NCBI GenBank assembly: GCA_965227405.1
Contig: OZ245758.1
Span: forward strand, 2,996,338-3,060,337
Source: Polyangiales bacterium
GTDB taxonomy: Bacteria; Myxococcota_A; Polyangia; Polyangiales; Houyiibacteriaceae
DNA: 64,000 nucleotides
Direction: 5' to 3'
Every line of letters begins with the position of its first letter. The first letter of the stretch is position 1. A model generated the notes under the pieces. It worked only from the letters and a program-made list of their open reading frames with translations. It ran no database searches and was not told where the DNA came from. A program made the position numbers and the translations under genes. Positions 7,339 through 51,122 of this stretch are shown here, piece after piece.

Positions 7339-8793
7339 TCAAAACACGAGGCGTACCGAAGCGCGCGTGGGTCCGACGTGGAGGCTCACTTCGTTGGCTG
7401 CGTCTTCGATCTCGTCGTCGCTTGCCGCGAGCAAGACCAGCGTCAGTCCTGTGGCCGAGAGCGCGAGCCCCGCGCCAAGTCCGATGTACCCCAACGCCTT
7501 CTGTAAGTTCGTTCGCTCGACAAGGTTGTTGTAGCGCTCTTGCTCCAAATCAAAGTCGAACATGTTGGGGCCATCTGGTGAGCACTCCAACGTTCCTCGG
7601 TTCTCTGGAAGCTCACAAAAGTCGAGCATGTCTTTGCGCGCTTCGTTGGCGTCCGAGTTCAAGTCGCCTCGCGCCACGAGGATCGGAACCAAGCCCGCGA
7701 TCACCAGTACACCACCGGCTCCAACAAACGCCCAACCGAGTTGTCGCCGTGATGCCGCACTTTCGCGACGCGTGGCCAACGCGGCATCGGTCCACGAGAA
7801 CTGAGGCGCAAGCTCCAACTCTTCGCCAGCTTCGATGTCCACACGTCCACGACTGGGCCGGCGTTCGGGGAGGAAGATGCGCACATCATGCGGACCGATC
7901 GGAAGTTCGACTTGTTCGCTCACATCCACCGAGCTGCCGTCGATCTCCAGTCGTTCCGGCGTGACCGGAGTGCGCAGCCGCAGTGAACCCATCACAGAAG
8001 GGTCGGCGTTTGGATCGATCTGCATGCGCAGCGTCACCTCACTGTCGACCGCGTCCTGAACCTCGACAGTCTCGCGTGTCGTTTGATAGCCCGCGCGCTG
8101 TCCTTCTACGAGATGCGCACCCGGCGAGGTTAGGTGTGTCGGAGTCATCGGTGTCGTACCAACGAACTCGCCATCCACGCGCACTTCGACGCCAGAGAGA
8201 TTGCTGCGCACGCGAATCGAACCGCGTCGCTCCAACAAAGGTCGCAAGGTCAGACGAACGAGTACCTCTTCGCCTCCCGCGACCGACACCACTTGGCGAG
8301 CAACGTCATGCCCCGTCGCGCGCGCTGACACCTCTACCGAACCGGCTTCAACGCGTAGAGGATCGACCAGTGGGGTTGTCGCGCGGTCGACGCCTCCAAT
8401 CATGATCACCGCACCTTGGACGTTGACTTCGACTCGCACCGAACCGATCTGATCGCGCAGTCGACTCAACGAACGATCGATCTCGCGCCGTTCCCGACGA
8501 GAAATTCGTCCTGCATCGTTGAGGTAGTGCTCGTAAAAACTGACAGCCTCGACAGGGTGGTCGAGACGTTCGTGCACACGTGCGAGGTTGTAGAGAACGG
8601 CTGGATCCGGTGCGAGGTCATATGCCGCGCGAAACTCAGCAAGCGCTTGTTCGTAGTCGCCCGCGTCGTAACGCGTCATGCCGCGTTCGATGTGTGCCGC
8701 TGCCGTTTCGGTGTTCGGTTGCGCCGCCACGATGCTCGGCTGTGCCGCGACGGTGATCGTGATCAGCAAGGCGGTGATCGCCACTCGCATCAT
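7339..8793 (-). CDS. Secreted/membrane TPR-repeat + PEGA-domain protein
   Basis: Signal peptide MMRVAITALLITITVAAQPSIVAAQ. TPR-like helices (YDAGDYEQALAEFRAAYDL...YNLARVHERL). PEGA-type beta domains (VRVDGEFVGTTP, EVSARATGHDVARQVVSV). C-terminal hydrophobic segments. Confidence 0.6.
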   Translation of the reverse strand: MMRVAITALLITITVAAQPSIVAAQPNTETAAAHIERGMTRYDAGDYEQALAEFRAAYDLAPDPAVLYNLARVHERLDHPVEAVSFYEHYLNDAGRISRRERREIDRSLSRLRDQIGSVRVEVNVQGAVIMIGGVDRATTPLVDPLRVEAGSVEVSARATGHDVARQVVSVAGGEEVLVRLTLRPLLERRGSIRVRSNLSGVEVRVDGEFVGTTPMTPTHLTSPGAHLVEGQRAGYQTTRETVEVQDAVDSEVTLRMQIDPNADPSVMGSLRLRTPVTPERLEIDGSSVDVSEQVELPIGPHDVRIFLPERRPSRGRVDIEAGEELELAPQFSWTDAALATRRESAASRRQLGWAFVGAGGVLVIAGLVPILVARGDLNSDANEARKDMLDFCELPENRGTLECSPDGPNMFDFDLEQERYNNLVERTNLQKALGYIGLGAGLALSATGLTLVLLAASDDEIEDAANEVSLHVGPTRASVRLVF

Positions 8794-10052
8794 TGGCTGT
8801 ACCCAGGCCGCATGAGTCCATCACGCTCCGAGGGACGAAGCTTAGTCATCTGCGTGGTCATCTCGGTGGTCGGCGCAACTCGCATCTCCGTGACGGTCAT
8901 CTCCGCACTGCTGGTCATCTCCGTGATGCTCGTCATTTCGGTGCGTTCGGGTGTCGCTGCTCCGTTGGGGATGTCCGGTTCTTGCGGCTGTTCGGGTGTC
9001 GTCGGTGCAGGCGCTTCAGTTCGGGTCAGCACCCACGTGAGACCGGCACCAAGAGCCAGCGCCAAAAGTAAGGCAGGCCACCAGACACGCCGAGGGGGTG
9101 GAGCGTGCCGACTCTCCATGGTTTTGGGAATCGACGCCTCACTCGCCATCGTCGCCATGAACGCCATGGGATCGGTTCGCGCACCCACAGGCGTCAGCAC
9201 AAGTTCGGTTGCGAACTCGTCCATTGCGGCTTCGAGTTCTTCGGTGGTCTGAAAACGTGCGCCGCGGTCCAGCTGCATTGCGCGCTCGATCACGCTGGCA
9301 AGTTGGGTGTCGAGCTCGGGGTACTCGCCCGCTGCAACACACTCGCCGGTGAAGATCTTCACCAGCAGTTCGGGAAGTGACTCGGCTTCAAACGGGCGGC
9401 GACCCGTCACCATTTCGTAAAGCACCACACCCAACGCATAGATGTCGGTTCGCAGGTCAACGTTCTTGCTGTTGCGGAGCTGCTCCGGCGACATGTACAG
9501 CGGCGTTCCGAGGATCGCGCCCGTCTCGGTTGCACCCGTGAGCTCTTCGGCGTTTTCAAACTTGCTGATCCCGAAGTCGATCAGCTTGACCTTGAGATCA
9601 CCCCCCGTGTTGACCAGAAAGATGTTCTCAGGCTTGAGGTCGCGGTGGATGACACCGGCCTCGTGCGCGATGCGCAAACCACGACACGCCTCACGCACAA
9701 CCGCACACGCCAAACCCGCCGGTAGCTTTCCGCGTGCGTCGAGGACCTCGCGTAGCGAGTCGCCCTCAAGCATCTCCATCAACACGTAAAACGAACCGTC
9801 TTCGAGCTGTCCTGCGTCAAAGATCTGAGTGATGTAGTCGGTGTCCAGAGTGCCGGCGACAGACGCCTCTTGAAGGAAACGCTTGATGATCGTCGCGTTT
9901 GCTTCACGCGGGGTCATCACCTTCAGTGCGCGCCGATGTTTCGTGAGCGTATGGCGCACCTCGTACACAACACCCATGCCGCCTGCGCCGAGCACGCGAA
10001 TAATCTCGAGTTTGCCGTCGAGAAAAGTGTCCCCGGCCTTCTTAGGCAGCAT
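8790..10052 (-). CDS. Serine/threonine protein kinase (Hanks-type)
   Basis: Kinase subdomains: G-loop LGAGGMGVVYEV, VAIK-like ALKVM, HRDLKPENIFL, DFG, SPEQ. C-terminal TM segment and Pro/Thr-rich tail. Start chosen at MLPKKAGD (ATG 10052). The longer upstream ORF extension would overlap the divergent EamA gene. Confidence 0.7.
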   Translation of the reverse strand: MLPKKAGDTFLDGKLEIIRVLGAGGMGVVYEVRHTLTKHRRALKVMTPREANATIIKRFLQEASVAGTLDTDYITQIFDAGQLEDGSFYVLMEMLEGDSLREVLDARGKLPAGLACAVVREACRGLRIAHEAGVIHRDLKPENIFLVNTGGDLKVKLIDFGISKFENAEELTGATETGAILGTPLYMSPEQLRNSKNVDLRTDIYALGVVLYEMVTGRRPFEAESLPELLVKIFTGECVAAGEYPELDTQLASVIERAMQLDRGARFQTTEELEAAMDEFATELVLTPVGARTDPMAFMATMASEASIPKTMESRHAPPPRRVWWPALLLALALGAGLTWVLTRTEAPAPTTPEQPQEPDIPNGAATPERTEMTSITEMTSSAEMTVTEMRVAPTTEMTTQMTKLRPSERDGLMRPGYSQ

Positions 10053-10944
10053 GCGCAGGGAGTATATCCTCCGCGTCGTGAAGCGCCGCGATTCCGACTC
10101 CGATTCCAAAAGGAACCGTGCGCGAATCGCAGTTGTCGTGGGCGTTGCCGCGATCAGCTTCGCAGCGATCTTCTTTCGCAAGACCGCACCCATGCATCCG
10201 CTTGTTGCCGCGGGTCTGCGTTTGTCGATCGCGGCAGTGTGCTTGTCGCCTTTCATCGTTCGTGCGTGGAAGGGCATGTCCCGCTCGGTGCGCATCGGCG
10301 CATGTGTGGGCGGGTTGTTCTACGCCGCGCACTTCGGAACGTGGGTGACCTCGCTGACGCTGACGAGTGTCGCCGCGTCGGTCACGTTGGTCACGGCGAC
10401 ACCCATTTTGTTGGCGACGTGGGCGTTCATCACCGGAACGGACAAACCGAGCAAGCTCCAACTTGGCGCGATCGCGATTGCCGTAGTGGGAGTCACCGTG
10501 ATCGGGTCACAGGACTCCGGTGGAGCGATCGTGGGCGATGCGTTGGCGTTTGCGGGTGCAGCAGCGATGGCGGGCTACTTAGTGATCGCGCGTCGACAAG
10601 GTGATCACTTGAACCCGATGGCGTTTACAGGTCTCGCATGCGCGGTGGGCGGTGCACTGCTCTTGTTAAGCACCGTTGTCTTTGAGGTGCCGCTCGAGAT
10701 CCCATCGATGGAGAGCTTCGGGTTTGTGCTTTTGGCGGTCGCCGTTCCGCAGTTGATTGGTCACACCGCGATGACCTACGCGCTTCGGGTGCTTTCACCG
10801 ACGCGGGTGGGCATGGCCACGGTTGCAGAGCCGGTCGGAGCGACGTTGCTCGCGTGGCTGTGGCTCACGGAAACACCTCCGTTGCTTACGCTGGTGGGTT
10901 GCGGGATTACGTTGAGCGCGGTGCTGCTCTCACTGCGCGAGTAG
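10051..10944 (+). CDS. EamA/DMT-family transporter (10 TM)
   Basis: Hydrophobic profile of two EamA repeats (IAVVVGVAAISFAAIFF..., ...LSAVLLSLRE). The start is uncertain: ATG 10051 overlaps the kinase start codon on the other strand; an in-frame GTG at 10078 is an alternative. Confidence 0.6.
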   Translation: MRREYILRVVKRRDSDSDSKRNRARIAVVVGVAAISFAAIFFRKTAPMHPLVAAGLRLSIAAVCLSPFIVRAWKGMSRSVRIGACVGGLFYAAHFGTWVTSLTLTSVAASVTLVTATPILLATWAFITGTDKPSKLQLGAIAIAVVGVTVIGSQDSGGAIVGDALAFAGAAAMAGYLVIARRQGDHLNPMAFTGLACAVGGALLLLSTVVFEVPLEIPSMESFGFVLLAVAVPQLIGHTAMTYALRVLSPTRVGMATVAEPVGATLLAWLWLTETPPLLTLVGCGITLSAVLLSLRE

Positions 10945-15632: not shown

Positions 15633-18600
15633 ATGACATCACGCCTTGTTCTCGCGTTCGCCGTCGTCTTTTCGTCGATGGCGCAGGCCCAAACCACTGG
15701 GCTCGAAGTATCACTCTACGGAACCACGCAAGCTGCCTACGGCGGTGCGCTTCGCATGAGCGGTGTGGCGTTCCAAACGCAAGGGTACGCCGAGCTTCGA
15801 ACACTTGGTGGTGCACAGATCGAAGCGCGACTGCGCGACTACGACTCGTCGGAGCGGCAGTGGCAAACGATCGAAACGGTCACGGTGCGGTCCAACGCGT
15901 CGGGTGCGTTCGATTTTGTGCTCGAGGTTCCTGAACGTCGCTTCCGCCAAGTGCAGCTGCAGATCGAAGTGCGTGGTGCGGGCAAAGAGCGCACGTTTGA
16001 GTACCCGGTGCAGCTGCGTTCGCCTTTGGCGTTTGACCTGCTCTTGGATCGCAACCGGTACGAGCCGGGCGAGACCGTGCACATGTGGAGTCGTCTCTTT
16101 CGCAGCGAAGACGGCGCGCCGGTAAGCGGTCGTACCGTGGCGGTGCGTGTTCACGATCCGAGTGGCCGGCCCATGGTCGAGCGTTCGGTGCAGGTGGCGC
16201 AAAGCGGGGCGGCGACACTCGATATCGAGCTACCGGATTCTGCAGCCGACGGTGTGTACGCGGTCGACCTGCGCTTGGACGACAGCATTGCCGGTGCCAC
16301 AGCGCGCCGAACGTTCCAAGTGGCACGGCGCACCGTGGAGCGTGTCTTGGTGGAAACCACGATCGACCAACGCGTGGTGCCTCCTTCAGGACAAATCACC
16401 GGCAACGTCACAGTGACCACGCCCAGTGGTGCACCTGTTGTAGGTGCCGAGGTGCAGTTGCAAATTGGTTCGGATCGTCGTCAGCGCCAGGTTGTTCAGA
16501 CCGATAGCGAAGGCGTAGCCGCGATCCGCATGCAAGCACCCGCGTACTTGGTGGGTGATGTGCAGGCGCAATCGCTGCAGGTTCGTGTGCAGCACTCGGC
16601 GCACGGCACGTTGCACTCCAGTGCCTCGTTCTTGCTTTCGCGAGTCGAGTGGCAAGTCACCGCGACTGCGGCCAACGGCGCGATCGTTCCCGAGGTCGAC
16701 ACCGAAGTCGTGATCAGCGTCAACGATCCACGCGGTGAACCAGCACCCGCAGGCACGAAGGTGACCGTGACGGGTGATGCGATTCGTGGAGGGTCGCGCG
16801 AAGTGGAAATCGATGCGCATGGACTCGCCGTCGTTCCGGTGCGTGTCGCCGATGGTGATGCGGGTCCACTTCGCGGATCCACGCCGGGCTGCAGCGGAAT
16901 TTCGGGCGTGCGTGTGGAGGTCGACGTGCAGACCGAGCGCCCCGCGTTCGCGCGTGTGTGTCTGGCCGTCAACCCTAAGGCTCAAGTGCGTCCCCGCGTG
17001 GTGCGAAGCGTGGTTGCGCCCGGGTCGATCGTGGAAGTCGATCTTGCTCGTCATCCCGACGTGCGCGGCCGCCCTGTGTTGGTGGAAGCGTTGATGAACA
17101 ACATCGCGATCAGCGCGGCCTTTGCGAGTGGAGCACGTGCACGAGTTCAGCTTCCGGCCGACGTCGGCGGCATCGTGCAGATTCGAGCTCGACCGCTATT
17201 GCCGCATGATGCGCGACATCCCTTGGATCAACCCGGCGGTTCTTCGCTTGGCACCGGTTCGTACGACGCGGTTCTAGTCCGTCCGGCCGACGCGTTCGGG
17301 TTTGAGATTGGTCGCGAACAAGAGACGTACCGCGTTCGCGAAACCGCGCAGTTGGGCTTGCGCACCACACAATCCTCGCCTCAAGCATGGGCAACGTTGG
17401 TCGCGCGCGATTTGGCTGCGCATGGCGGCGAGACGCCGTACTCGGTCGCATGGATGCGCGGTGCGTTGGATGCAGCAGTGACCGCGCCCGATGCGCAGGG
17501 CAACGACCTGCTTCTTCGCGCCGCGTTGTTGCGAAGCCTGCCGCAAGACAACCAACCGCGTCGTGAGCCGCCCTTGGTGCAGCCGTACTGGCGCAGCTCG
17601 TACCCACGGGGTGGCCAGGGCGGGACGTTGCGCGATCCCGTGGCGGATCGTGACCGGATGCGACGTCGACAAATCGGCCAGCTGATGATGCAGCTCGAAC
17701 GTTTTGTGTCGTCGTGGGATCTCGAGCGCGCCGTTCGAGACGGACTTCTGGTGCGTCGTGGCAACGGATACGACTTTCATCCGGATGCGATTGCGAACTT
17801 GGTGCGCGCCCGCCAGCTCGGAGAAGCGATCAGCGACACCTTGGGTGGCGATACCGCCAGCATCGCAATGATCCGCGCGGTGGATGCATCGTTCACGTTC
17901 GACGCTGTGGCTCGTCGCATCGCCCGTGGTCGTTTGGTGATGTTGATGATGGCGATTTCGCGTTTCTCCAACCCGGATGACGCAAACGCAGCACGCGCGA
18001 GTCAGGGCCAACCTCCCGAACGCTGGCTTTCACGCATGGTGCAGTTGGGAGTGTTGCGTCCGAACCAGCTTCTCGATCCCTGGGGACGCGCGTTTGAGTT
18101 TCGTCGTGCAGGTACACCGCAGCTGGTCATCACCGATCGTGCACCTGCGTGGGAGCTGGTCAGTGCAGGACCCGACGGACGCTTTGGTTCGCGCGACGAC
18201 GTTCGCAATCCCTTCCAGCGATTGGTTGCCGAAGGTTCGCCCTATGCGGTGGTGTCGGGTGAAGACCGGTTGATGAAAGCATTGAGCACGCTCGCTCCCG
18301 GACCTCGCGTGTTGCAGGCGATGGCGACCGCGTATGCGAGCGTGAGTCTTCAGGCTCTCGAAGAGCAGCGACAGCGCGCTGTGAGCGCCAACGCGTCGGA
18401 AGGCGCGGAGGTCATGGACGACATGCTTGGCGGCCTAGCTACGCGAGGTGCTGGTGGCATGGCAGCACAGTCGGCGCCCCGACGGTCGGCCCGTGCGCGT
18501 CCCGCACCTTCACCGGCGATGGACGCGGCCGGCGAGGTCATGGCGGAAGCCGACTTCGAAGACGAAGATGGCGAGCCAGAGCCCGAGGAAGAATCCGAAC

Positions 18601-20759
18601 GACGTGAGCGCAACGCGCAGACTCAGGGAGTGTTCGACCCTATTGCGAACCTCAACGCGATTGTCCGCGAGCGTTTTCCCGCCACACTTCATTTCATCGG
18701 CGAGGTCGCCTTGGATGGCACGCTGACCACGGTTCCGCTCGAGCTCGCCGACGCGTTGACGACGTATCGCGTGGAAGCGATCGCGTGGACTTCGAGTGGT
18801 TGGCTGACAACGGCCACCGTCGATGTGAAGGTTGATCAAGAAGCGACTGTCGACGCTCCCACACCACCATTTGGCACTGTGGGCGACACGTTGCGCTTGC
18901 CGGTTCGGGTGGGCAACCGCACACGCCAGCCGCTCGAAGTACGCGTTGTGGTCGAGCACGAAGGCGAAGGTGGCGTGACGATTCCGCAACCGTTGACGCT
19001 CACCGTTCCGCCGCGTGACGCGATCGAGAGCACGGTCGAAGTGAACCTGACGGCACAAGGCGCCGGTTCGTTGCTGATTCGGGCCATGCGCGCGTCGGAT
19101 GAACGACCACTGGATGCCGTGCGACGTCCCCTGACCGTGTGGAGCGATGCACGCTTGGTACGCGTGCGACGTGAGCTGCTCTTGGTCGACTCAAGTGGTG
19201 CTGAGCTGACCATCGATATTCCGGAAGATGCGAGTGAGCGCGGTGCGGGCGAACTTCGCGTGTTGCCGGCTACGGCGATCTTTGGCGACGTGACGCAGCT
19301 GACGCATCCCAGCGTGGGCTGGGCGCTAGCGTTGGTCGGCGAAACTCCGCCGGAGTCGTTGTTGGTCAACGCACGTCGCACGCTCCGCGCAGGCGACCCT
19401 GTGGAGGATCATCAGATTCACGGACCACCGGGTGTGCTGGCGATGGCTGCTGCGACGGTGTGGAAAGACGCGACCGTTCAGGATCCTGTTCTGAGACGTG
19501 CACTGCGATCGATCAGTCGCATTCTCGGCGACCCCACCAATACGCCCTCGCCGGGTCAAACCTTGGCCATGGCTGAAGTGCTCGCGGCGCTGGCTCCGTG
19601 TGTGCAAGAGGGTCGTCCTGCAGTTCGTGGTGTGCTGATCGAACTGACCGATGAACTGCGTCGTCGCGTTGGAAGTGGTGCGGTCGCACAGTCCGAGGCG
19701 CCGATTCTTTGGGCGCGCAGTGCAGCCGCGTTGGCTTTGGTGGGCGGGGATACGCGTGCACGCGAACTGCTGCGCCGAGCGGAGCGACACGTGGTGCGTT
19801 TGGATCGCGAAGCATTCTTGGAAGAGCCCTCACAAGCGGGCATTCCCGTCGCGCGCATCACGCCTACGGCGATCATGGCGATCGCGTGGGCGGCGTTGGA
19901 AGAGCGGGGACGTGCGATGGCGTACTTGCGTCACTTGGTGTCGCTCCATCGTGGTGCAGAGCACTGGCAGGCCGATGCACGCGTGATGGCTGCAGCCGCG
20001 GCGGGCACTGTCGCAGGCCGAGGTGCAGGAAGCACGCTGAGCGGAACCTACGGCGGCCAGTCTCTCTCGTTCAGTGCGCTTGATGACGCACCCGACTCAC
20101 GCATTCGTGTGGCTGAACTGCCGAGTGCAGTTGCGGGTTCCCATCGCGTTCGCGTGAACGGACCACGTCTCGCGTTGGTGTACCTCGATGTGCGTTATGG
20201 GCGGCCTTGGTCAGCGGCTCCTGACCGTGCGGCGCGAATGGACTTGGAGATCGAAGGGGATCTCGGGCCGCGTGATGCGCGTGCAGGCATTGCGCTGACC
20301 TTGCGCAACCGCGCACCACGTCTTGCGACCTCACCGGTGGTCGAGATCGATCTGCCGGCAGGGACCGAGCTCGACGAACCCACGCGCGCGGTGTTGCGCG
20401 GTCTCACCGTCGTGGAACCCACGGTGGAAGGACGTACGCTGCAATTGCATCTGCGGCCCTTGGCACCCGGTGGTCGTGCACGTGTACCGCTGCCCCTTCG
20501 TTGGAGTGTGGGTGGAACGCTCCGTGGGTTGGGCGTAACCGCGTACGACGATGCCACAGCACCTTCGACCGAGGTGCGACCGCTCAGCATTCTTCCTTCG
20601 CGCGAACTGACGATTGCCGATGAAGGACAAGAGCCCGAGCAAGCAGAAGCCGAGCGAACACCAACGCCTCAACCGCCTCCACCACCGCCACCCTTACCAC
20701 GTCCGGTCGATGCGTTTGGCCCTGTCGCGATGCTTCTTGAAGGAGGTGCGCGATGCTGA
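15633..20759 (+). CDS. Giant secreted protein (1708 aa), alpha-2-macroglobulin-like MG-domain signature + GspG-like pseudopilin motif; paralogue 1
   Basis: Sec signal MTSRLVLAFAVVFSSMAQAQ. MG2-like motif LLLDRNRYEPGETVHMW. Multiple Ig-like beta regions. GspG C-terminal-like segment ...LLDPWGRAFEFRR...ELVSAGPDGRFGSRDDVRNPF. Helical alpha/alpha-like region. Pro-rich tail. No CGEQ thioester motif seen. Confidence 0.45.
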   Translation: MTSRLVLAFAVVFSSMAQAQTTGLEVSLYGTTQAAYGGALRMSGVAFQTQGYAELRTLGGAQIEARLRDYDSSERQWQTIETVTVRSNASGAFDFVLEVPERRFRQVQLQIEVRGAGKERTFEYPVQLRSPLAFDLLLDRNRYEPGETVHMWSRLFRSEDGAPVSGRTVAVRVHDPSGRPMVERSVQVAQSGAATLDIELPDSAADGVYAVDLRLDDSIAGATARRTFQVARRTVERVLVETTIDQRVVPPSGQITGNVTVTTPSGAPVVGAEVQLQIGSDRRQRQVVQTDSEGVAAIRMQAPAYLVGDVQAQSLQVRVQHSAHGTLHSSASFLLSRVEWQVTATAANGAIVPEVDTEVVISVNDPRGEPAPAGTKVTVTGDAIRGGSREVEIDAHGLAVVPVRVADGDAGPLRGSTPGCSGISGVRVEVDVQTERPAFARVCLAVNPKAQVRPRVVRSVVAPGSIVEVDLARHPDVRGRPVLVEALMNNIAISAAFASGARARVQLPADVGGIVQIRARPLLPHDARHPLDQPGGSSLGTGSYDAVLVRPADAFGFEIGREQETYRVRETAQLGLRTTQSSPQAWATLVARDLAAHGGETPYSVAWMRGALDAAVTAPDAQGNDLLLRAALLRSLPQDNQPRREPPLVQPYWRSSYPRGGQGGTLRDPVADRDRMRRRQIGQLMMQLERFVSSWDLERAVRDGLLVRRGNGYDFHPDAIANLVRARQLGEAISDTLGGDTASIAMIRAVDASFTFDAVARRIARGRLVMLMMAISRFSNPDDANAARASQGQPPERWLSRMVQLGVLRPNQLLDPWGRAFEFRRAGTPQLVITDRAPAWELVSAGPDGRFGSRDDVRNPFQRLVAEGSPYAVVSGEDRLMKALSTLAPGPRVLQAMATAYASVSLQALEEQRQRAVSANASEGAEVMDDMLGGLATRGAGGMAAQSAPRRSARARPAPSPAMDAAGEVMAEADFEDEDGEPEPEEESERRERNAQTQGVFDPIANLNAIVRERFPATLHFIGEVALDGTLTTVPLELADALTTYRVEAIAWTSSGWLTTATVDVKVDQEATVDAPTPPFGTVGDTLRLPVRVGNRTRQPLEVRVVVEHEGEGGVTIPQPLTLTVPPRDAIESTVEVNLTAQGAGSLLIRAMRASDERPLDAVRRPLTVWSDARLVRVRRELLLVDSSGAELTIDIPEDASERGAGELRVLPATAIFGDVTQLTHPSVGWALALVGETPPESLLVNARRTLRAGDPVEDHQIHGPPGVLAMAAATVWKDATVQDPVLRRALRSISRILGDPTNTPSPGQTLAMAEVLAALAPCVQEGRPAVRGVLIELTDELRRRVGSGAVAQSEAPILWARSAAALALVGGDTRARELLRRAERHVVRLDREAFLEEPSQAGIPVARITPTAIMAIAWAALEERGRAMAYLRHLVSLHRGAEHWQADARVMAAAAAGTVAGRGAGSTLSGTYGGQSLSFSALDDAPDSRIRVAELPSAVAGSHRVRVNGPRLALVYLDVRYGRPWSAAPDRAARMDLEIEGDLGPRDARAGIALTLRNRAPRLATSPVVEIDLPAGTELDEPTRAVLRGLTVVEPTVEGRTLQLHLRPLAPGGRARVPLPLRWSVGGTLRGLGVTAYDDATAPSTEVRPLSILPSRELTIADEGQEPEQAEAERTPTPQPPPPPPPLPRPVDAFGPVAMLLEGGARC

Positions 20760-23700
20760 GGCTTTCGTTGGCTCTGGTCCTGCTCGCGAATGTGGCGAGC
20801 GCGCAAACCTCGACTGCACGACGCGTGAACCGCGGCGAAGTGACGGGCGTCGAACTCCAGATCGAAGGTGCGCTGACTGCGCGACGCGGCGAAACACTTC
20901 GCTGGAGTCTGGTTGCGTACGAAGTCGTTGGGCTTGATCAGCTGCGTCCGGCTGCCGGTGCAGAGATCACGATCGCCACGTCGCTCAAGCCAGGCGAGTT
21001 CGCCGCTGAAGCCACCGCGGATGCGCGCGGGCGAGCGTTGGTGGAAATCGAAGTCCCCGAGGATGCGGGAGCGAACTTTGGCGCCAACGTGCGCGTGCAT
21101 GCGCGTCGTGGTGTGTCGCGACGTTTTGACCTGCAGGTTCAACTGCAGGAGCCGCGTGTGTTGGAACTTCGCGCAGCACCCGCGGCGCGTGCGGGCGGAA
21201 CCCTTCCGGTGTTTGGGCGCTACCAGCGCTTTGACGGCCAAGCGATTCCCGAAGCGGCGATCGAACTCCAAGCCTACGACAGCCGGGGACCACTCGGTCG
21301 TCCGGTACGCGTCGAGTCGGATCTCGCTGGTGTGTTCACCGCGGACCTGCGCATTCCTCGCGATGCCGTCGCGCCTTTGCGCGTGACTGCGAAAGGTCCC
21401 GAGGACGAAGAGGAACGGCGCATTGAAGCCGCTGCGGCTGCAGTGTTGCTGGAACCGGCGGCTCCCCCGCTGGTGGTCGCCGTGTCGACCGACGGTGTGG
21501 TGCATGGCTCGCGTGCACGCGTTCCGGTTCAGGTGGTGATCCGACGTGCCGATGGGCGTCCCGTGGAGGGCGCGCTCGTGCGAGTGGGCAACCAACCCGT
21601 ACCGCTTACGCGCGAAGAAGAGGAAGCACAGCGACGTCTTCCGCTGACCCGAACGGACGCGCGCGGACGTGCCACGCTTGAATACGAGGCGCCGCGCGTC
21701 ACATCGGGATACCGCGACGTGAACGTGCAAGTCCAAGTAGGGCGCGCAGGCATTGGGCGTGCAACTGGCTCCGCGCGCTTGCGCATCACCAACCAGTCGC
21801 ACTTTGCGCAGCTAAGCGTGGAGGGTGGCGCATTGGTTCCGACGTTGGGTGCGCGCCTCTTTGCCGAAGTCGTTCGTGCAGATGGTCATCGCGCTCCGGC
21901 AGGTGTGCCGGTGGTCTTTACAGGCCCGCGCATTGGTCGACACGAGGCGACCACCGACGCGTCCGGTATTGCTGTGGCGTCGATGCAGGTGGGCCCCAAA
22001 GCCGACGAGGATCGTTGTGGCGGCGATGCGGTCACGGCAGTGGACATGAAGGTGGCCAACAACGACCTGATTCGTCTCTGTGTTCCGGTCGATCCCGACG
22101 CGGCGACGCGTGTGACGGTGGGCGAAGCTCTGGTCGGTCCCGGCGACACGGTGTCGGTGGAGATCGAACGCACGGCTGCAGCCGCGCGACTTCCTGTCGC
22201 GGTGACCGTCTTCAACGCTCAGAACCATCCGGTGCACACGACGGTTCTTGCACCGCGCACCAACACGCTGGAGATCGAAGCGTCAGGTCGAGGCGCCATG
22301 CGCGTTCGAGCGCGACCCTTGGTGGGTACGCGTCAGGAAGAAGCGCGAGGAAGCTTTGCTGCGTTCTGGGTCGCGCCGGATCGAAACCTCAACGCAGCCG
22401 GTGCAGCCGAGGGATCAACCAACACAGTCAACGTGCGCAGCACGGTTCAAGGTGCCGAACACGCGACCACTCTGGCGGTGTTGTGGCCGTTGGGGCAGCC
22501 GTTCGACGTCGGTCCTGCAACGCTTTCCGATCCGCGTGGGGAGTGGTCCGCCAACGTCGTGGCTGCCCACCTTGCGCGCACCACGCCGCTGGACATCGCG
22601 GCGCCGATTCGTTTGCGTGGACGCACGACGAGTCCCGCACCCGAACCCGCGTCGCCTGAGCAGTACGGACTTCTTCGCGATCCCTGGCGCGCCAGTGCGC
22701 GTTTTGTCGAAGGTCGATTGGCGTTGGTCTTCCGCGCAATTGAACAGCGCATCGAATCGGCGGTTCCTGAACAGATCGACGAAGTTGCCTCGGTCGAGCG
22801 AGGTCGCTTTCGCTTCAACCGCCAGCTCCTGGCGTCGTTGCAAAGCGGACAACTGGGTTCCGAAGGTGCAACCGGTCTTGGCGGCGAGCCACTGACGATC
22901 GAACGTCTCGAAGCACTGGATCGCGCGTTCACGTACGACAACGTCGCGCGTCGGATTACGCGACGACGTCTGTTCAAGATCCTGTTGGCGTTGCGCGCGT
23001 TCGTGCAGCAGCAAGCGCTGGATCTGGCGTGGACGCGTCCCGGGGATCCCACGTTGTGGATCGAGCGCCTGCGCAACCAGTACGTGCCGCAGGTCGGGCA
23101 GTTGCGTCCCGCGGAGCTCGTGGATGGTTGGGGGCGTCCGTTCCGTCTTCGCGCGACCGGCCGTGCGCGCTTCACCCGCGTGCAGCCCGTTGACGGTTAT
23201 GAGCTGGTGAGTGCCGGTCCCGACGGACGTTTTGGAAACGGCGACGACGTGGCCAACCCGATCGCGCGTGTGCTTCCCAACGGTTCGCTCTACGGGCGTG
23301 CGGTGGGTGAGGATGCTCTGGTGGCGCGTCTCCAAGGCGTTGAGTTGGGTCGCGCGACGCTCGACATGGCAGCGCGCGTGTTTGGTGTGGGTGCTGTCGG
23401 TATTCCCGCACCGAGTTCCACACCGCGTGGTGTGTCGCTGGGTTCGTTGCCCGCTCCGATCGAACCGGATCGTTGGGCACTTGCCCTTCGGCGTCCGACA
23501 CAGCCCGCGGACAGTCGAGTGCAGCGCATCGAAGGCAACGCGTCGGTCGAGGTGGGTGATGAACCGCGTACGTGGCGCGCTGCCCTTCTCACGATCACGC
23601 CCGATGGCTCGCGCCACATTCACGAGGATGGTGTGCGTGCTGGCTCGAGTGTGTTGCGCGACTTGATCCTGCCTTCGCGCTTGCGCGTAGGTGAGCCGCT

Positions 23701-25390
23701 CAACTTCCAGCTTCATCTCACCGACGTGAGCAACAACGGGACCCAGCTCAACATTCAGGCGAGCGCCGAGGGCATCGACGTCAACGTCGACTCGAGCCTG
23801 CAGTTGCCGGCCGGTGAAACGCGTACCTTGCCAGTTCGTCTCGAAGGTCGAGCGCCGGGCCGAAGCGAAGTTGTCGTGCAGGTGACAACCAGTGAAGGCA
23901 CGCAGTCGGTGCGCGGTCGGGTTGATGTGGACCGTGGACTTCATCCGGTGCGTCGACGCACCAGTGCACTTCTCGGCGAAGGCAGTTTGCGCATGCCCTT
24001 TGATGCCCCGAGTGGTTCGCAAGCGCGGTTGGTCCTGGTGGCGCCGCGCGCACTCGCTGCCGATCCGGACTTTGCCGATATGTGGCGAGACGACCCGGCG
24101 TTGATCGCGTGGAGCGAGACGCTGGCAGGTCGCACGCTAAGCGATGAGCTGCGCAGTCGCCTCTTGCGTGCACAGCGCGGTGGAGTGTTTGAAGGCCGCG
24201 AGCGCGCGATTTCGACAGCTGCTGCGATTTCGGCGCTGAGTGCCGTGTTCGATGAGCGCGGTCGGCCTGATCCTGAAGCGCAGGCCGCACGTCAGCGCGC
24301 GGTAGGCACGCTCAACGGGTTGGGTCAGATGCAAGATCCGACGGGGCACGGTGCGCTGCGTGCCCAAGCAGCGATCGTGACCGCACTCGCGACTTCGGGG
24401 GTGAGCGACCTGGACTCGCGTGAAGCCTACGATCCGGTCGGGCGCATCTTGCGCACCTGGTTGCCGCCGTTGCGACGCGCGCTGCGTGATGTTCCGGGTG
24501 AGCCCACGCTCTTGGCACGAGCATCTGCAGCATTGCTTCTCGCGGACCCGCGGGACGGGCATGCGCGAGCCATGTTCAACCGACTCGTTGAATCGCTTGA
24601 GAGTGCTCCCGGTGGTCAACGCGTGGTTCCAAGTACGGAACGGGCAAGCGTGGAAGAGAGCGTGCAAGCTTCGATCGCGGCAGCCCTCGCAGCGCACCAG
24701 TTGGGACGAAGCGAACTCGCGCGCGACCTGTTGGGGTACGCCGGTCGTCACACGGCAGACATCGCACGCAACGGCGGCGAGAGCGCGTTTTGGTGGTTCG
24801 CGGCCAACGCGTACGGTGCGTTTGGCGATTCGCCGGACAAGGTGGTGGTTCGCATCGACGGAACGCGCCACGAAGTCGACCTGAGCAACGGAAGCGCGAC
24901 GTTGCCGCTTTCGGGCAACAGCACGATTCGATTCGAGGGGGGCCAAGGTCCGGTGCTTGCGCGTGCGGAAGCCGTGTTTGGTCGCGAGCTGACGGCGCGC
25001 CGCGATGCGCCGCTGCGCTTGGAGCTTCGAGGAGAGTCGGGTGGCGTGGGCGAGCTCGCAGCATACGAGTTGGAGATCACCGCAACCCGCGCCGTGAACT
25101 CGGGTGTGCTGGATGTTCAGTTGCCGGCTGCTGTCGATGCGGACGAACGCTTCTTGGCGGTGCTGCAGGGCAATGCGCACGTGCGGCAGGCTGAAGCGCG
25201 CAATCCGGGATTCGTGCGGATCTGGTTGGCGCCGATCGCCGATGAGGCGCGCGCGACCATTCCGATTCCGCTGCGTTGGCAGGCCGTCGGGCAGGTTCGT
25301 GGACTTGCGATGATCGCGTACGAGGCGGATCAACCGGGCGAGATGACGATCTTGCCGCCACGTACACTCACCATTGCGGACGCCGACTGA
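20753..25390 (+). CDS. Giant secreted protein (1545 aa), paralogue 2 of the preceding gene
   Basis: ATG at 20753 overlaps the upstream stop by 7 nt. Signal MLRLSLALVLLANVASAQT. Same architecture, including the GspG-like segment LVDGWGRPFRLR...YELVSAGPDGRFGNGDDVANPI and a similar C-terminal end. Confidence 0.45.
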   Translation: MLRLSLALVLLANVASAQTSTARRVNRGEVTGVELQIEGALTARRGETLRWSLVAYEVVGLDQLRPAAGAEITIATSLKPGEFAAEATADARGRALVEIEVPEDAGANFGANVRVHARRGVSRRFDLQVQLQEPRVLELRAAPAARAGGTLPVFGRYQRFDGQAIPEAAIELQAYDSRGPLGRPVRVESDLAGVFTADLRIPRDAVAPLRVTAKGPEDEEERRIEAAAAAVLLEPAAPPLVVAVSTDGVVHGSRARVPVQVVIRRADGRPVEGALVRVGNQPVPLTREEEEAQRRLPLTRTDARGRATLEYEAPRVTSGYRDVNVQVQVGRAGIGRATGSARLRITNQSHFAQLSVEGGALVPTLGARLFAEVVRADGHRAPAGVPVVFTGPRIGRHEATTDASGIAVASMQVGPKADEDRCGGDAVTAVDMKVANNDLIRLCVPVDPDAATRVTVGEALVGPGDTVSVEIERTAAAARLPVAVTVFNAQNHPVHTTVLAPRTNTLEIEASGRGAMRVRARPLVGTRQEEARGSFAAFWVAPDRNLNAAGAAEGSTNTVNVRSTVQGAEHATTLAVLWPLGQPFDVGPATLSDPRGEWSANVVAAHLARTTPLDIAAPIRLRGRTTSPAPEPASPEQYGLLRDPWRASARFVEGRLALVFRAIEQRIESAVPEQIDEVASVERGRFRFNRQLLASLQSGQLGSEGATGLGGEPLTIERLEALDRAFTYDNVARRITRRRLFKILLALRAFVQQQALDLAWTRPGDPTLWIERLRNQYVPQVGQLRPAELVDGWGRPFRLRATGRARFTRVQPVDGYELVSAGPDGRFGNGDDVANPIARVLPNGSLYGRAVGEDALVARLQGVELGRATLDMAARVFGVGAVGIPAPSSTPRGVSLGSLPAPIEPDRWALALRRPTQPADSRVQRIEGNASVEVGDEPRTWRAALLTITPDGSRHIHEDGVRAGSSVLRDLILPSRLRVGEPLNFQLHLTDVSNNGTQLNIQASAEGIDVNVDSSLQLPAGETRTLPVRLEGRAPGRSEVVVQVTTSEGTQSVRGRVDVDRGLHPVRRRTSALLGEGSLRMPFDAPSGSQARLVLVAPRALAADPDFADMWRDDPALIAWSETLAGRTLSDELRSRLLRAQRGGVFEGRERAISTAAAISALSAVFDERGRPDPEAQAARQRAVGTLNGLGQMQDPTGHGALRAQAAIVTALATSGVSDLDSREAYDPVGRILRTWLPPLRRALRDVPGEPTLLARASAALLLADPRDGHARAMFNRLVESLESAPGGQRVVPSTERASVEESVQASIAAALAAHQLGRSELARDLLGYAGRHTADIARNGGESAFWWFAANAYGAFGDSPDKVVVRIDGTRHEVDLSNGSATLPLSGNSTIRFEGGQGPVLARAEAVFGRELTARRDAPLRLELRGESGGVGELAAYELEITATRAVNSGVLDVQLPAAVDADERFLAVLQGNAHVRQAEARNPGFVRIWLAPIADEARATIPIPLRWQAVGQVRGLAMIAYEADQPGEMTILPPRTLTIADAD

Positions 25391-25411
25391 GCGGCGCTAC
25401 TCTCCGCCGCC

Positions 25412-26053
25412 ATGAGCGACCCCATTGCCTTCCTCAAAGACACCTTTCCTGCCCTCTTCAACAAAGGCGTAGCTGGGCTCGAAGCCAAAGCTGCGGGAGG
25501 TCACGAGAAAGCCGGCAAGATCCTCGCGGACGTGAAAGGCGCGTCCGGAAACGTTGTGCTCGTCGTCGAAGGCGAGGGCGAGGTCTACATGAGTTTTGGC
25601 GACGGCAAGATGGAAGCCGTCGATGCGAAGCCGACCGACAACGTGAAGCTGGCCGTTGCTGCTCCGGCGGCTGCGGTGAAGATGCTGTTGGGCGAAGCCG
25701 AAAAAGAAGGCGAGCTCGAAGAGGACAAAGCGGCGAAGCGCGCAGCACGAACGGTGTCGAAGCGCATGCAAGACGCGTTGGGCGACCAGTCGTTGCTCTT
25801 TCACATCGTGATCGAGAACGTGCCCGAGCAGGGAACCGTTGCCGTGAAGATCGGACTCAACGCGCCTGAGCCTCCTGAAGAGCCGAAGTTTAAAGCGACG
25901 ATTGCGTTCGAAGACTTGGAAGCCGCGCGCAACGGCGAAGTGAACCCGCAGATGTTGTTCATGGGCGGGAAGCTGCGTATGGAAGGCGACTATTCAGCGG
26001 CGCTGCAACTCGGTATGCAGCTGATGACGCAAGCGCAGCAAGACGGCTTCTAG
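25412..26053 (+). CDS. SCP2 sterol-carrier/lipid-binding domain protein
   Basis: C-terminal signature MLFMGGKLRMEGDYSAALQLGMQL typical of the SCP-2 family. Confidence 0.6.
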   Translation: MSDPIAFLKDTFPALFNKGVAGLEAKAAGGHEKAGKILADVKGASGNVVLVVEGEGEVYMSFGDGKMEAVDAKPTDNVKLAVAAPAAAVKMLLGEAEKEGELEEDKAAKRAARTVSKRMQDALGDQSLLFHIVIENVPEQGTVAVKIGLNAPEPPEEPKFKATIAFEDLEAARNGEVNPQMLFMGGKLRMEGDYSAALQLGMQLMTQAQQDGF

Positions 26054-49967: not shown

Positions 49968-51122
49968 GTGGGCCGCCTGCGCGAGCTTCCATCCATCGGC
50001 CAAATCGGTCGGTACCAGGTGCTCGGTAAGATCGCGAAAGGCGGAATGGCCGAGATCTTTCTCGCTCGGCAAGAAGGACCGCGAAACGCTTGGCGACCCT
50101 TGGTGGTCAAGCGTGTGCTCTCGCACCTGACCGACGACGCGGATTACGTGGAGAGTTTCGTGCACGAGGCTGAGCTGTGCATGCGGCTCGACCATCCGAA
50201 CATCTGCGCGGTGTACGACTTCGGCCAACACGGCTCCGACTACTTCATCGCGATGGAGTACGTCGACGGTGTGAGCCTGCGCCAGTTGGTTGATCGGGTG
50301 GGGCCCTTGCCGGTCGAAATCGCAGCACGCGTGATCGCCGATGTGGCATCAGCCCTGCACCACGCGCACACCGCAACCGACGACAACGGCAAACCGCTGG
50401 GGCTCGTGCATCGCGACGTCACGCCTGAGAACATCATGATCGGGTACGACGGTCGTGTGCGGCTCTTGGACTTTGGTATCGCCAAGGCTGAAACGCAGAC
50501 CACCAAGACTCAGGCGGGCGTGTTGAAAGGCAAGATCGCGCACATGAGCCCTGAGCAATACAAGGGCGAGAAGCTCGATGGGCGCGCCGACCTGTTCTCG
50601 TTAGGGGCCACGTTTTACGAAGCCTTGGTCGGAAAGAATCCATTCGAACGCGTCGCGGAGGCCCACATCGTCGCAGCGATTCTGTTCGAGGAGAACGTTC
50701 CGGATCCCAAAGAGGAACGCGAGGAAGTTCCGGCCGGCTTGAGCATCGTAGTGCGTTCGATGCTTGCCAAGGATCCCGAAGAGCGCACCGAAAGTGGCGA
50801 AGCCGTTGCCGAGCAGATCGAGACGTGGCTTCGTGGTTCTGGGCATCGCGTTCGTTCCGCGGATCTCGCGGCGGTGTTGGAGACGCACTTCGCCAAGGAA
50901 AAGAGCGCAGGTCCGAAGTTGGACCGGACGCCTTTGGAGCACGTGGTTCTCGATCCGCTTTCATCGGCCGTTCAAAGTGCGGAGCTCGATGAGTTCGTGG
51001 GCGCGACGATGCGCGCGCAAAAGCGCAAGACTCGGATGCTGATCGTGCTGACGGCTGTGGTGGTGCTGAGCGCGCTGGGCTACCTGATGTTCCGCCTGGC
51101 GACTTCGCCTGCACCGACCTGA
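49968..51122 (+). CDS. Serine/threonine protein kinase with C-terminal TM anchor
   Basis: G-loop GKIAKGGMAEIF, VVKRV, HRDVTPENIMI, DFGIAKA, SPEQ. C-terminal hydrophobic helix MLIVLTAVVVLSALGYLMF. Starts 10 nt after gltD. Confidence 0.75.
   Translation: MGRLRELPSIGQIGRYQVLGKIAKGGMAEIFLARQEGPRNAWRPLVVKRVLSHLTDDADYVESFVHEAELCMRLDHPNICAVYDFGQHGSDYFIAMEYVDGVSLRQLVDRVGPLPVEIAARVIADVASALHHAHTATDDNGKPLGLVHRDVTPENIMIGYDGRVRLLDFGIAKAETQTTKTQAGVLKGKIAHMSPEQYKGEKLDGRADLFSLGATFYEALVGKNPFERVAEAHIVAAILFEENVPDPKEEREEVPAGLSIVVRSMLAKDPEERTESGEAVAEQIETWLRGSGHRVRSADLAAVLETHFAKEKSAGPKLDRTPLEHVVLDPLSSAVQSAELDEFVGATMRAQKRKTRMLIVLTAVVVLSALGYLMFRLATSPAPT

Follow-up and report, generated by a model that had tools for sequence, protein, structure and literature searches.

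A coupled pair of thioester-less macroglobulin-like proteins from a Polyangiales bacterium with a conserved insertion at the bait position

A stretch of 64,000 nucleotides from the genome of a Polyangiales bacterium (contig OZ245758.1), referred to here in its full length as the window, carries two adjacent genes for giant secreted proteins, which we designate A and B. By fold and family, both proteins almost certainly belong to the superfamily that comprises alpha-2-macroglobulin (A2M), TEP and complement C3. An earlier note on this DNA, made by reading the sequence, had described the pair as thioester-less A2M-like proteins or, alternatively, as a new family of giant proteins. The most unusual feature of the pair, an additional domain inserted at the position of the bait region, is absent from that account.

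Assignment of A and B to the macroglobulin superfamily

Searches with the single sequences proved weak: phmmer comparison of A and B with the PDB returned nothing significant, a scan of both proteins with NCBIfam gave no usable match, and B alone did not match any Pfam family above its cutoff. Family profiles were therefore needed. In Pfam, A exceeds the gathering scores for MG2 (49.9 bits, cutoff 32.8), MG4 (26.3 bits) and A2M (PF00207, 29.8 bits, cutoff 21). The MG2 match (residues 138-230) opens with LLLDRNRYEPGETVHMW (residues 136-152), the very stretch that had been singled out by eye as an MG2-type motif. Some B orthologues bear a precomputed PF01835 assignment, and the orthologue from Sandaracinus amylolyticus (P0102) scores 28.2 bits for the A2M domain (PF00207). 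When the PDB was searched with the A-family profile, the Salmonella A2M SaA2M (4u48, E = 2.1e-14) and Escherichia coli YfhM/ECAM (E = 1.8e-13) were found along with Anopheles TEP1 (E = 6.9e-10), human A2M (E = 7e-9 to 1e-8), A2ML1 and CD109. The B-family profile matched TEP1 (E = 1.7e-12, residues 103-371) and YfhM (E = 1.2e-10, residues 937-1062), and also C3 and A2M. A canonical comparison profile was built from eight CxEQ-bearing bacterial A2Ms retrieved in the same homologue search (P0057-P0064). With hhalign, the A family aligned with this profile over 1201-1293 columns (E = 1.6e-45 and 1.4e-72) and the B family over 1218 columns (E = 2e-27).

Structure prediction by domain, which the earlier note had proposed as a check, was carried out for A, with AlphaFold2 (AF2) models covering residues 540-1010 and 1000-1708. 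The model of A 1000-1708 has a predicted local distance difference test score (pLDDT) of 88.8 and a predicted template-modeling score of 0.79. It consists of a beta region at ~1044-1111, a second one at 1121-1212, a domain of about 12 helices at 1226-1461 and two further beta regions at 1470-1559 and 1568-1661. The two segments at 1121-1212 and 1470-1559 are CUB-like beta halves that flank the TED-like domain, which is shortened to ~236 residues. In Foldseek, the model aligned over ~770 columns with C5 (E = 1.5e-26), C3 (E = 2.5e-23), A2ML1, A2M and CD109, the E-values ranging from 1.5e-26 to ~1e-20. On the model, the C-terminal half of A is predicted to fold as MG7-CUB-TED-CUB-MG8. The same order would hold for B, as inferred from the colinearity of the two families in hhalign. 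The Pfam models TED_complement and A2M_recep give no match. Note that the model of A 1000-1708 (window positions 18630-20756) superposes better on native C3, C5, A2ML1 and CD109 (TM 0.42-0.44) than on activated C3b (~0.25). An adhesin- or invasin-type protein with Big domains was considered as well and rejected, with Big_1 staying below its cutoff and the C-terminal half of A corresponding to MG7-CUB-TED-MG8.

These results bear out most of what had been read from the sequence. The beta-rich character claimed for the N-terminal halves is supported by the profile matches to MG2-MG4 of TEP1, and the AF2 prediction for A 540-1010 confirms the helical middle region. MG and A2M domains were indeed returned by the HMM searches, in agreement with the A2M-like reading. 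The alternative of a new family of giant proteins survives in part: the pair does constitute a new clade-restricted branch, but this branch sits within the A2M superfamily.

Loss of the thioester

As the earlier note had stated for CGEQ and CLEQ, a thioester motif is missing: C.EQ is present neither in A nor in B. It was found in none of 92 full-length A-type and none of 156 full-length B-type proteins (0/248), as opposed to all eight canonical A2Ms. Opposite the canonical 'PYGCxEQTxSS' loop, both families show a gap in the profile alignments; the loop has thus been deleted family-wide. B contains only two cysteine residues, C422 and C443, both of which reside in the N-terminal MG array and are invariant in the B family. 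The equivalent pair in the A family consists of C420, which is invariant, and C443, which is conserved in at least 90% of the sequences, and the two N-terminal cysteines may form a disulfide. Cysteine 1323 of A ('LAPCVQEG') was considered as a remnant of a degenerate thioester and dismissed: it is not conserved (the consensus residue is alanine) and lies ~100 residues past the position of the loop.

A conserved domain and a variable linker at the bait site

In canonical A2Ms the bait region, and in C3, C4 and C5 the anaphylatoxin domain, is located between a 'VDxxV' and an 'FPxTW' motif. Both landmarks can be recognized in A. The N-terminal MG array ends at 'LVARDLAAHGGE', which aligns with the A2M motif 'VLDKAV', and 'ATLVARDLAAHGGE' (residues ~587-600) aligns with the pre-bait sequence 'VVILDKAV' of canonical A2Ms. 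On the other side, 'RERFPATLHF' (residues 1011-1020) aligns with the post-bait sequence 'LREYFPETLLW', and the MG region that follows is where the A-family profile matches the Salmonella and E. coli A2Ms. The ~410 residues between the two motifs therefore lie where A2Ms have their bait region and C3, C4 and C5 their anaphylatoxin domain.

Two very different elements share this space. In the AF2 model of A 540-1010, residues 669-884 form a compact alpha/beta domain with pLDDT values of 95-97, and residues 915-977 score below 50. Column conservation in the A insertion amounts to 0.64-0.80 per 40-residue window (residues 761-880), which places it among the best-conserved regions of the protein (MG7 reaches 0.78), and in the B family the insertion is the best-conserved block of all (0.57-0.73). 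Between A and B, the insertion domains are 37% identical as compared with 27% overall. A profile of the insertion domain was searched against 1.84e9 representative proteins (E ≤ 1e-3) and gave 354 matches. In the best 150 of these 354, all of the A or B type, the domain occupies the equivalent internal position; most are proteins of 1400-1800 residues, and the remainder are shorter fragments. On that evidence, i.e., the best 150 of 354 matches, the ~230-residue insertion domain appears to be restricted to the A/B family.

The linker of A, which directly precedes the FPxT motif, has the lowest conservation in the whole protein (0.36 and 0.13), and the segment between the flanking motifs (residues 886-1011 in A) ranges from 90 to 155 residues in length across the A family. 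In B, the position of the linker was set relative to the FPETW-equivalent motif in hhalign; it is 68-94 residues long across the family with a conservation of 0.43. Such variability, together with the composition of the linkers, is the behavior expected of a bait region, and we consider them candidate baits.

Pseudopilin likeness of the insertion

The insertion domains of both proteins share the motif DPWGR.F…ELVSAGPDGRFG..DDV.NP, in which W, G, S, G, D, D, D and P do not vary within either family; D848, D855 and D856 are among the invariant residues. When 37 insertion sub-sequences from a 130-residue sub-alignment were compared with Pfam, T2SSG (PF08334) was the only family that recurred. It was matched by 27 of the 37 sub-sequences at E ≤ 1 (best E = 1.6e-4); A itself scores 12-18 bits at a cutoff of 21. 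The insertion sub-profile matched GspG of enterohemorrhagic E. coli (3g20) weakly (E = 0.19). Foldseek comparison of the insertion model with the PDB gave no match (best E = 2.3), and no known fold was matched by the N-terminal half of the domain. We regard a GspG-like subdomain as probable, though short of proof. It is internal (residues ~756-870 of 1708), and the helix preceding it, ARRIARGRLVMLMMAISRF, is charged. A prepilin leader followed by a hydrophobic alpha1-N helix is not present on the insertion domain, and the N-terminus of the protein carries an ordinary Sec signal.

A protein from a Pyrinomonadaceae metagenome-assembled genome (MAG), P0057, has 1972 residues, a CGEQ motif and three tandem GspG-like modules at the same site, for which the T2SSG score reaches 32 bits and hence exceeds the cutoff. 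The GspG-like modules (DPWG…GPDG…DD) and a CarboxypepD_reg domain occupy residues ~729-1276, between BRD and 'FPETLLW'. As P0057 stems from another phylum, inserts of the pseudopilin-like kind also occur at the bait site outside the myxobacterial family, and the protein gives independent support for the pseudopilin likeness of the A and B insertions. A homologue search with the three modules of P0057 returned only five fragmentary matches, and none of the papers searched names a macroglobulin together with a pseudopilin.

Organization and distribution of the gene pair

Many homologues of both proteins exist (56 full-length A-type and 108 B-type homologues in public data) and the AF2 models of A are highly confident, so A and B are real genes. 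The coordinates of all features are compiled in Table 1. In full agreement with the earlier note, the two open reading frames (ORFs) are coupled by an overlap of 7 nt, ATGCTGA, in which the start codon of B (ATG, 20753-20755) precedes the stop codon of A (TGA, 20757-20759). A GGAGG sequence is found 7 nt upstream of the ATG of B. By inspection, both N-termini fit Sec signals cleaved by signal peptidase I, MTSRLVLAFAVVFSSMAQA|Q in A and MLRLSLALVLLANVASA|Q in B (residues 1-17, ASA|Q), just as had been claimed. The first cysteine is residue 420 in A and residue 422 in B. Since neither signal contains a cysteine, both proteins lack a lipobox. Their description as paralogues also holds: BLASTP aligns 907 columns of A and B at 27% identity (E = 2e-50), rising to 33% in the last ~200 residues, and hhalign places the two family profiles in one colinear alignment of 1527 columns (probability 100, E = 8e-152). 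The proteins differ at their C-termini, where A-family members carry tails of mostly 35-60 residues (range 13-92) with the pattern E-P-E..E-A-E-S-S-P-x-P-P-P-P-P-P-L-P-R-P; B-type proteins end 2-15 residues past MG8.

Table 1 Features of the gene pair (window coordinates; residue numbers refer to the respective protein).
Feature	Position	Strand	Residues	Remarks and basis
Gene A	15633..20759	+	1708 aa	ATG start; secreted alpha-macroglobulin-like, A-type paralogue; ORF, Pfam, homologues, profiles
Signal peptide of A	15633..15689	+	1-19	AQA|Q, without lipobox cysteine; direct reading of the sequence
N-terminal MG array of A	15690..17432	+	20-600	MG2 at 138-230; Pfam MG2/MG4, TEP1 96-369 profile match, hhalign
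Conserved insertion domain of A	17622..18302	+	664-890	Compact alpha/beta; AF2, column conservation, profile search
Probable GspG/pseudopilin-like subdomain in A insertion	17898..18242	+	~756-870	Motif LLDPWGRAFEF…ELVSAGPDGRFGSRDDVRNP
Hypervariable disordered linker of A, candidate bait	18375..18647	+	915-1005	Rich in Ala/Gly/Glu/Arg/Ser/Pro; AF2, conservation
'RERFPATLHF' and post-bait MG domain of A	18663..18965	+	1011-1111	Pfam A2M (PF00207), 29.8 bits, cutoff 21
TED-like all-helical domain of A	19308..20015	+	1226-1461	No thioester loop; AF2 pLDDT ~90 or higher, Foldseek
C-terminal MG8/receptor-binding-like beta domain of A	20334..20615	+	1568-1661	AF2 and Foldseek; A and B 33% identical
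Acidic and polyproline C-terminal tail, A-type only	20616..20756	+	1662-1708	…EPEQAEAE..P.PPPPPPPLPRP…; AF2 pLDDT <50
A/B start/stop overlap	20753..20759	+		ATGCTGA, 7 nt; translational coupling
Gene B	20753..25390	+	1545 aa	ATG start; secreted alpha-macroglobulin-like, B-type paralogue; ORF, homologues, profiles
Conserved insertion domain of B	22667..23350	+	639-866	GspG-like motif LVDGWGRPFRL…ELVSAGPDGRFGNGDDVANP
Variable Pro/Ala/Gly-rich linker of B, candidate bait	23351..23557	+	867-935	Ends at 'EPRTW'; sequence alignment

When 185,579 species genomes were scanned, 77 loci were found, all in Myxococcota-type MAGs assigned to Sandaracinaceae, Sandaracinus, Polyangiales and Polyangiaceae, with one labeled Haliangium and one Pseudomonadota. 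Pairing was counted for the 55 A-type ORFs for which 3 kb or more of downstream sequence was available. In 50 of them, A is directly followed by B on the same strand, and the number rises to 53 when three broken A ORFs are included. Coding regions overlap by ATGA in 32 of 50 related pairs and by 1 nt in seven more (39/50 together). The occurrence of the same pair in other Myxococcota, which the earlier note had suggested should be looked for, is thereby established, and the A-B pair has been seen only in Polyangia-type myxobacteria (Sandaracinaceae, Polyangiales). Among the carriers is Sandaracinus amylolyticus with a complete genome (CP070225.1, pair at 9,447,360-9,457,225), where RefSeq names the B orthologue 'alpha-2-macroglobulin family protein'. 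Several MAGs contain two A-B pairs (L042/L049, L043/L075, L005/L059, L023/L057, L006/L064 and L012/L058). These fall into two sub-lineages with A-profile scores of ~2000 and ~1100-1300, respectively, and the whole pair has therefore been duplicated at least once.

The surroundings of the pair differ between loci, and of the genes flanking it in the window, none recurs in more than one of 79 related loci. As the flanks are not conserved, the conserved unit comprises exactly two genes. A larger operon including the neighboring genes for a GT21 glycosyltransferase, a thioredoxin-like protein or an SCP2 protein was rejected on the same count. A gene for a PbpC-like transglycosylase/transpeptidase was found neither in the flanking ORFs nor in those other large ORFs that the scan of the window covered, in line with the statement that pbpC is not adjacent. 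Genes for a type II secretion system (T2SS) or type IV pili (T4P) do not adjoin the pair in the window or at related loci.

The G+C content is 0.64-0.65 over both genes (positions 16000-26000) and 0.60-0.62 in the flanks. Long antisense ORFs run across the pair, e.g., one of 535 codons at 22415-24022 on the minus strand, and are likely artefacts of the high G+C content. A gene filter based on G+C at third codon positions (GC3) was uninformative at such a composition and favored the antisense ORFs. Scanning of the whole window with Rfam gave no matches, and a scan for promoters and terminators found none above shuffled expectation.

Other features of the window

Apart from the pair, the window contains several conspicuous genes. 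An ORF of 1085 codons (30998-34255, minus strand) encodes a homologue of the major vault protein of eukaryotes (Pfam MVP_shoulder, E = 2.8e-27; Vault_3, E = 3.4e-10), here of bacterial origin. Four consecutive ORFs of 650, 528, 540 and 615 codons between positions 42 and 7336 (plus strand) all specify RCC1-repeat or RCC1-like beta-propellers and form a tandem array of paralogues. Genes for eukaryotic-type Ser/Thr protein kinases are present at 8790-10295 (minus), 49968-51122 (plus) and 51618-53114 (plus), the first of which adjoins a gene for a PEGA/TPR protein (7339-8793, minus). Such an arrangement is typical of myxobacteria. Finally, an ORF of 327 codons at 34968-35951 (plus) contains only the catalytic domain of class-I Glu/Gln tRNA synthetases (E = 3.9e-52). 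Its length does not suffice for a full glutamyl-tRNA synthetase, and it may encode a YadB-like glutamyl-queuosine tRNA(Asp) synthetase.

Discussion

Type I bacterial A2Ms such as ECAM/YfhM and SaA2M are lipoproteins with a CxEQ thioester that are encoded beside pbpC. A and B share with them the order MG, bait, MG, CUB, TED, MG (5a42, 4u48), and among solved structures SaA2M and YfhM are the best profile matches of the A family; for the B family, YfhM ranks second to TEP1. Unlike the Type I proteins, however, A and B have no lipobox cysteine, no thioester loop and no pbpC neighbor. Type II bacterial A2Ms, MagD/YfaS, form an established class without CxEQ (PMC5764988), and thioester loss alone is therefore not new. 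Pseudomonas aeruginosa MagD traps proteases non-covalently after bait cleavage, and the capture mechanism of the thioester-less forms is still unresolved (PMC5764988). Like MagD/YfaS, A and B are large, Sec-exported macroglobulins of Gram-negative bacteria without CXEQ and with a (candidate) bait-like linker, and Type II MagD provides the closest functional analogy. The differences are substantial: MagD/YfaS belongs to a six-gene operon with DUF2135, DUF2300, DUF1175 and DUF2138 (PMC5764988; E. coli context), whereas two paralogues are found here; the ~230-residue insertion has not been reported for MagD/YfaS; and the similarity of A and B to MagD/YfaS is no higher than that to Type I.

A comparison can also be drawn with C3, C4 and C5, in which a folded domain likewise lies between the 'VDxxV' and 'FPExW' motifs and, in C3, the protease-processing site adjoins it. 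C5 also lacks a thioester, and C5 and C3 are the best fold matches of the C-terminal half of A. In contrast to these proteins, A and B carry an insert of ~230 residues, in part probably pseudopilin-like, which is unrelated to the 77-residue anaphylatoxin helix bundle. They have no C345C domain, and the identity amounts to just 12-15%. With GspG, EpsG and PulG (4lw9, 5wda, 3g20) the insertion shares the DPWG…(S/G)xGPDG…DD motif, but it is embedded in the middle of a protein of 1500-1700 residues, has neither leader nor alpha1-N, and in A reaches 18 bits where 21 are needed. P0057 resembles A and B in harboring GspG-like modules at the same bait site and differs from them by its three modules, its CarboxypepD_reg domain, the retained CGEQ, TED and receptor-binding domains that Pfam recognizes, and its affiliation with another phylum.

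Since the Type I features are missing, the Type II operon is missing as well, and the YfaS score is no better than the scores for Type I, the A-B pair would, on sequence grounds, represent a third, clade-restricted lineage of the superfamily. The coupled paralogue pair, the conserved bait-site domain with its pseudopilin-like part, the hypervariable linker and the shrunken, loop-less TED appear to be undescribed. Thioester-less A2Ms as such have been described before, and relatives of the pair already receive A2M or MG2 names in automatic annotation.

A working model can be sketched along the lines of known macroglobulins. Both proteins would be exported by the Sec system into the periplasm, where they would be present as soluble non-lipoproteins and would take on the native macroglobulin fold. 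The hypervariable linker would serve as the bait. Once cut there by an attacking protease, the molecule would fall into an N-terminal and a C-terminal half and undergo a rearrangement of the macroglobulin type, and the protease would be held non-covalently, as in thioester-less Type II MagD. By analogy, we give such a non-covalent protease trap an even chance. Coupled translation would supply the paralogues in roughly equal amounts, and they would act together, possibly as a heterodimer. This heterodimer is a tentative proposal to which we assign somewhat less than an even chance. The insertion domains could act as a lock, as an assembly interface or as a module for binding a partner.

A number of points weigh against this model. 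The pair has no linked protease gene, and what speaks for the heterodimer is gene linkage and nothing else. TED and MG8 are invisible to Pfam and were detected solely via profile-profile comparison and fold; the fold evidence covers the C-terminal half and the middle of A, with the N-terminal halves of both proteins, and B as a whole, placed by profiles. The pseudopilin likeness depends on one structural method; Foldseek was negative and the sequence scores lie under the curated thresholds. Moreover, superfamily members that lack the thioester, C5 for instance, do not inhibit proteases. Fold alone is therefore no proof of trapping.

The last point equally favors a different explanation, namely that the A2M fold has been re-purposed for a structural, binding or shielding part of the periplasm or cell surface, with the linker as a flexible tether; the insertion and the TED-like domain might, for example, bind polysaccharide, prey material or an envelope partner. 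Several observations would fit: the thioester is gone family-wide, the TED-like domain is cut to ~236 residues and goes unrecognized by Pfam, the best-conserved element outside MG7 is the insertion and not the bait or TED, and the conserved acidic and polyproline tail of the A-type proteins suggests anchoring or partner binding. On the other hand, the full macroglobulin domain order has been kept over more than 1200 columns and a hypervariable, disordered segment lies exactly at the bait site, neither of which a simple scaffold would readily account for, and MagD traps without a thioester (PMC5764988). We consider re-purposing possible, if rather doubtful. Considerably less probable still is a reading in which the insertion, as a secretion signal, a docking element or a mimic of the pseudopilus tip, ties the pair to a machine of the type II secretion or type IV pilus kind, so that the pair acts outside the periplasm. 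The GspG-like fold and motif point in this direction, as do the invariance of S-x-G-P-D-G…D-D in both families and the threefold presence of the same module in the otherwise unrelated canonical A2M P0057; the corresponding loop of GspG/EpsG binds calcium. However, the domain is internal and devoid of the prepilin leader and the hydrophobic alpha1-N helix on which pilus assembly depends, T2SS or T4P genes are not found beside the pair here or in related loci, the sequence likeness is weak, and Foldseek did not detect a pseudopilin. Least probable, in our view hardly tenable, is that A and B are plain duplicated orthologues of the Type II system MagD/YfaS. The missing CxEQ and the Sec signal without lipobox, as in MagD (PMC5764988), would agree with such a relationship, as would the match of the A profile to E. 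coli YfaS at 56.6 bits. Yet this score is no better than the 52-55 bits for Type I SaA2M and YfhM, the B profile does not match YfaS at all, DUF2135, DUF2300, DUF1175 and DUF2138 are missing near the pair in the window and in loci L001 and L002, and among the best 150 of 354 matches the 230-residue insertion is found only in the A/B family.

A bolder version of the trap model deserves mention, unlikely as we judge it to be. Here, A and B would be an obligate heterodimeric, thioester-independent machine whose functional core is formed by the pseudopilin-like, probably calcium-binding insertions and not by TED. The insertions might then lock the subunits until the bait is cut, or dock the complex on a secretion or pilus apparatus. 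If true, the pair would stand for a third mechanistic class of bacterial macroglobulins, and it would be the first example in the A2M/C3 superfamily of a bait/anaphylatoxin site that has taken up a domain with the pilin fold.

Bacterial alpha-macroglobulins attract study because they mimic, and may be ancestral to, the A2M and complement proteins of animal innate immunity. Among them, the lineage described here amounts to a natural experiment, in which the thioester loop has been deleted and TED shrunken, strong selection constrains a folded bait-site domain, and two paralogues are inherited as a coupled unit. For annotation, the immediate consequence is that B-type proteins, now without a Pfam domain, can be named as members of the alpha-macroglobulin family. 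Should the heterodimeric, non-covalent trap prove true, the range of mechanisms in the superfamily would be broadened, and the bait site would emerge as a recurrent hot spot for domain insertion.

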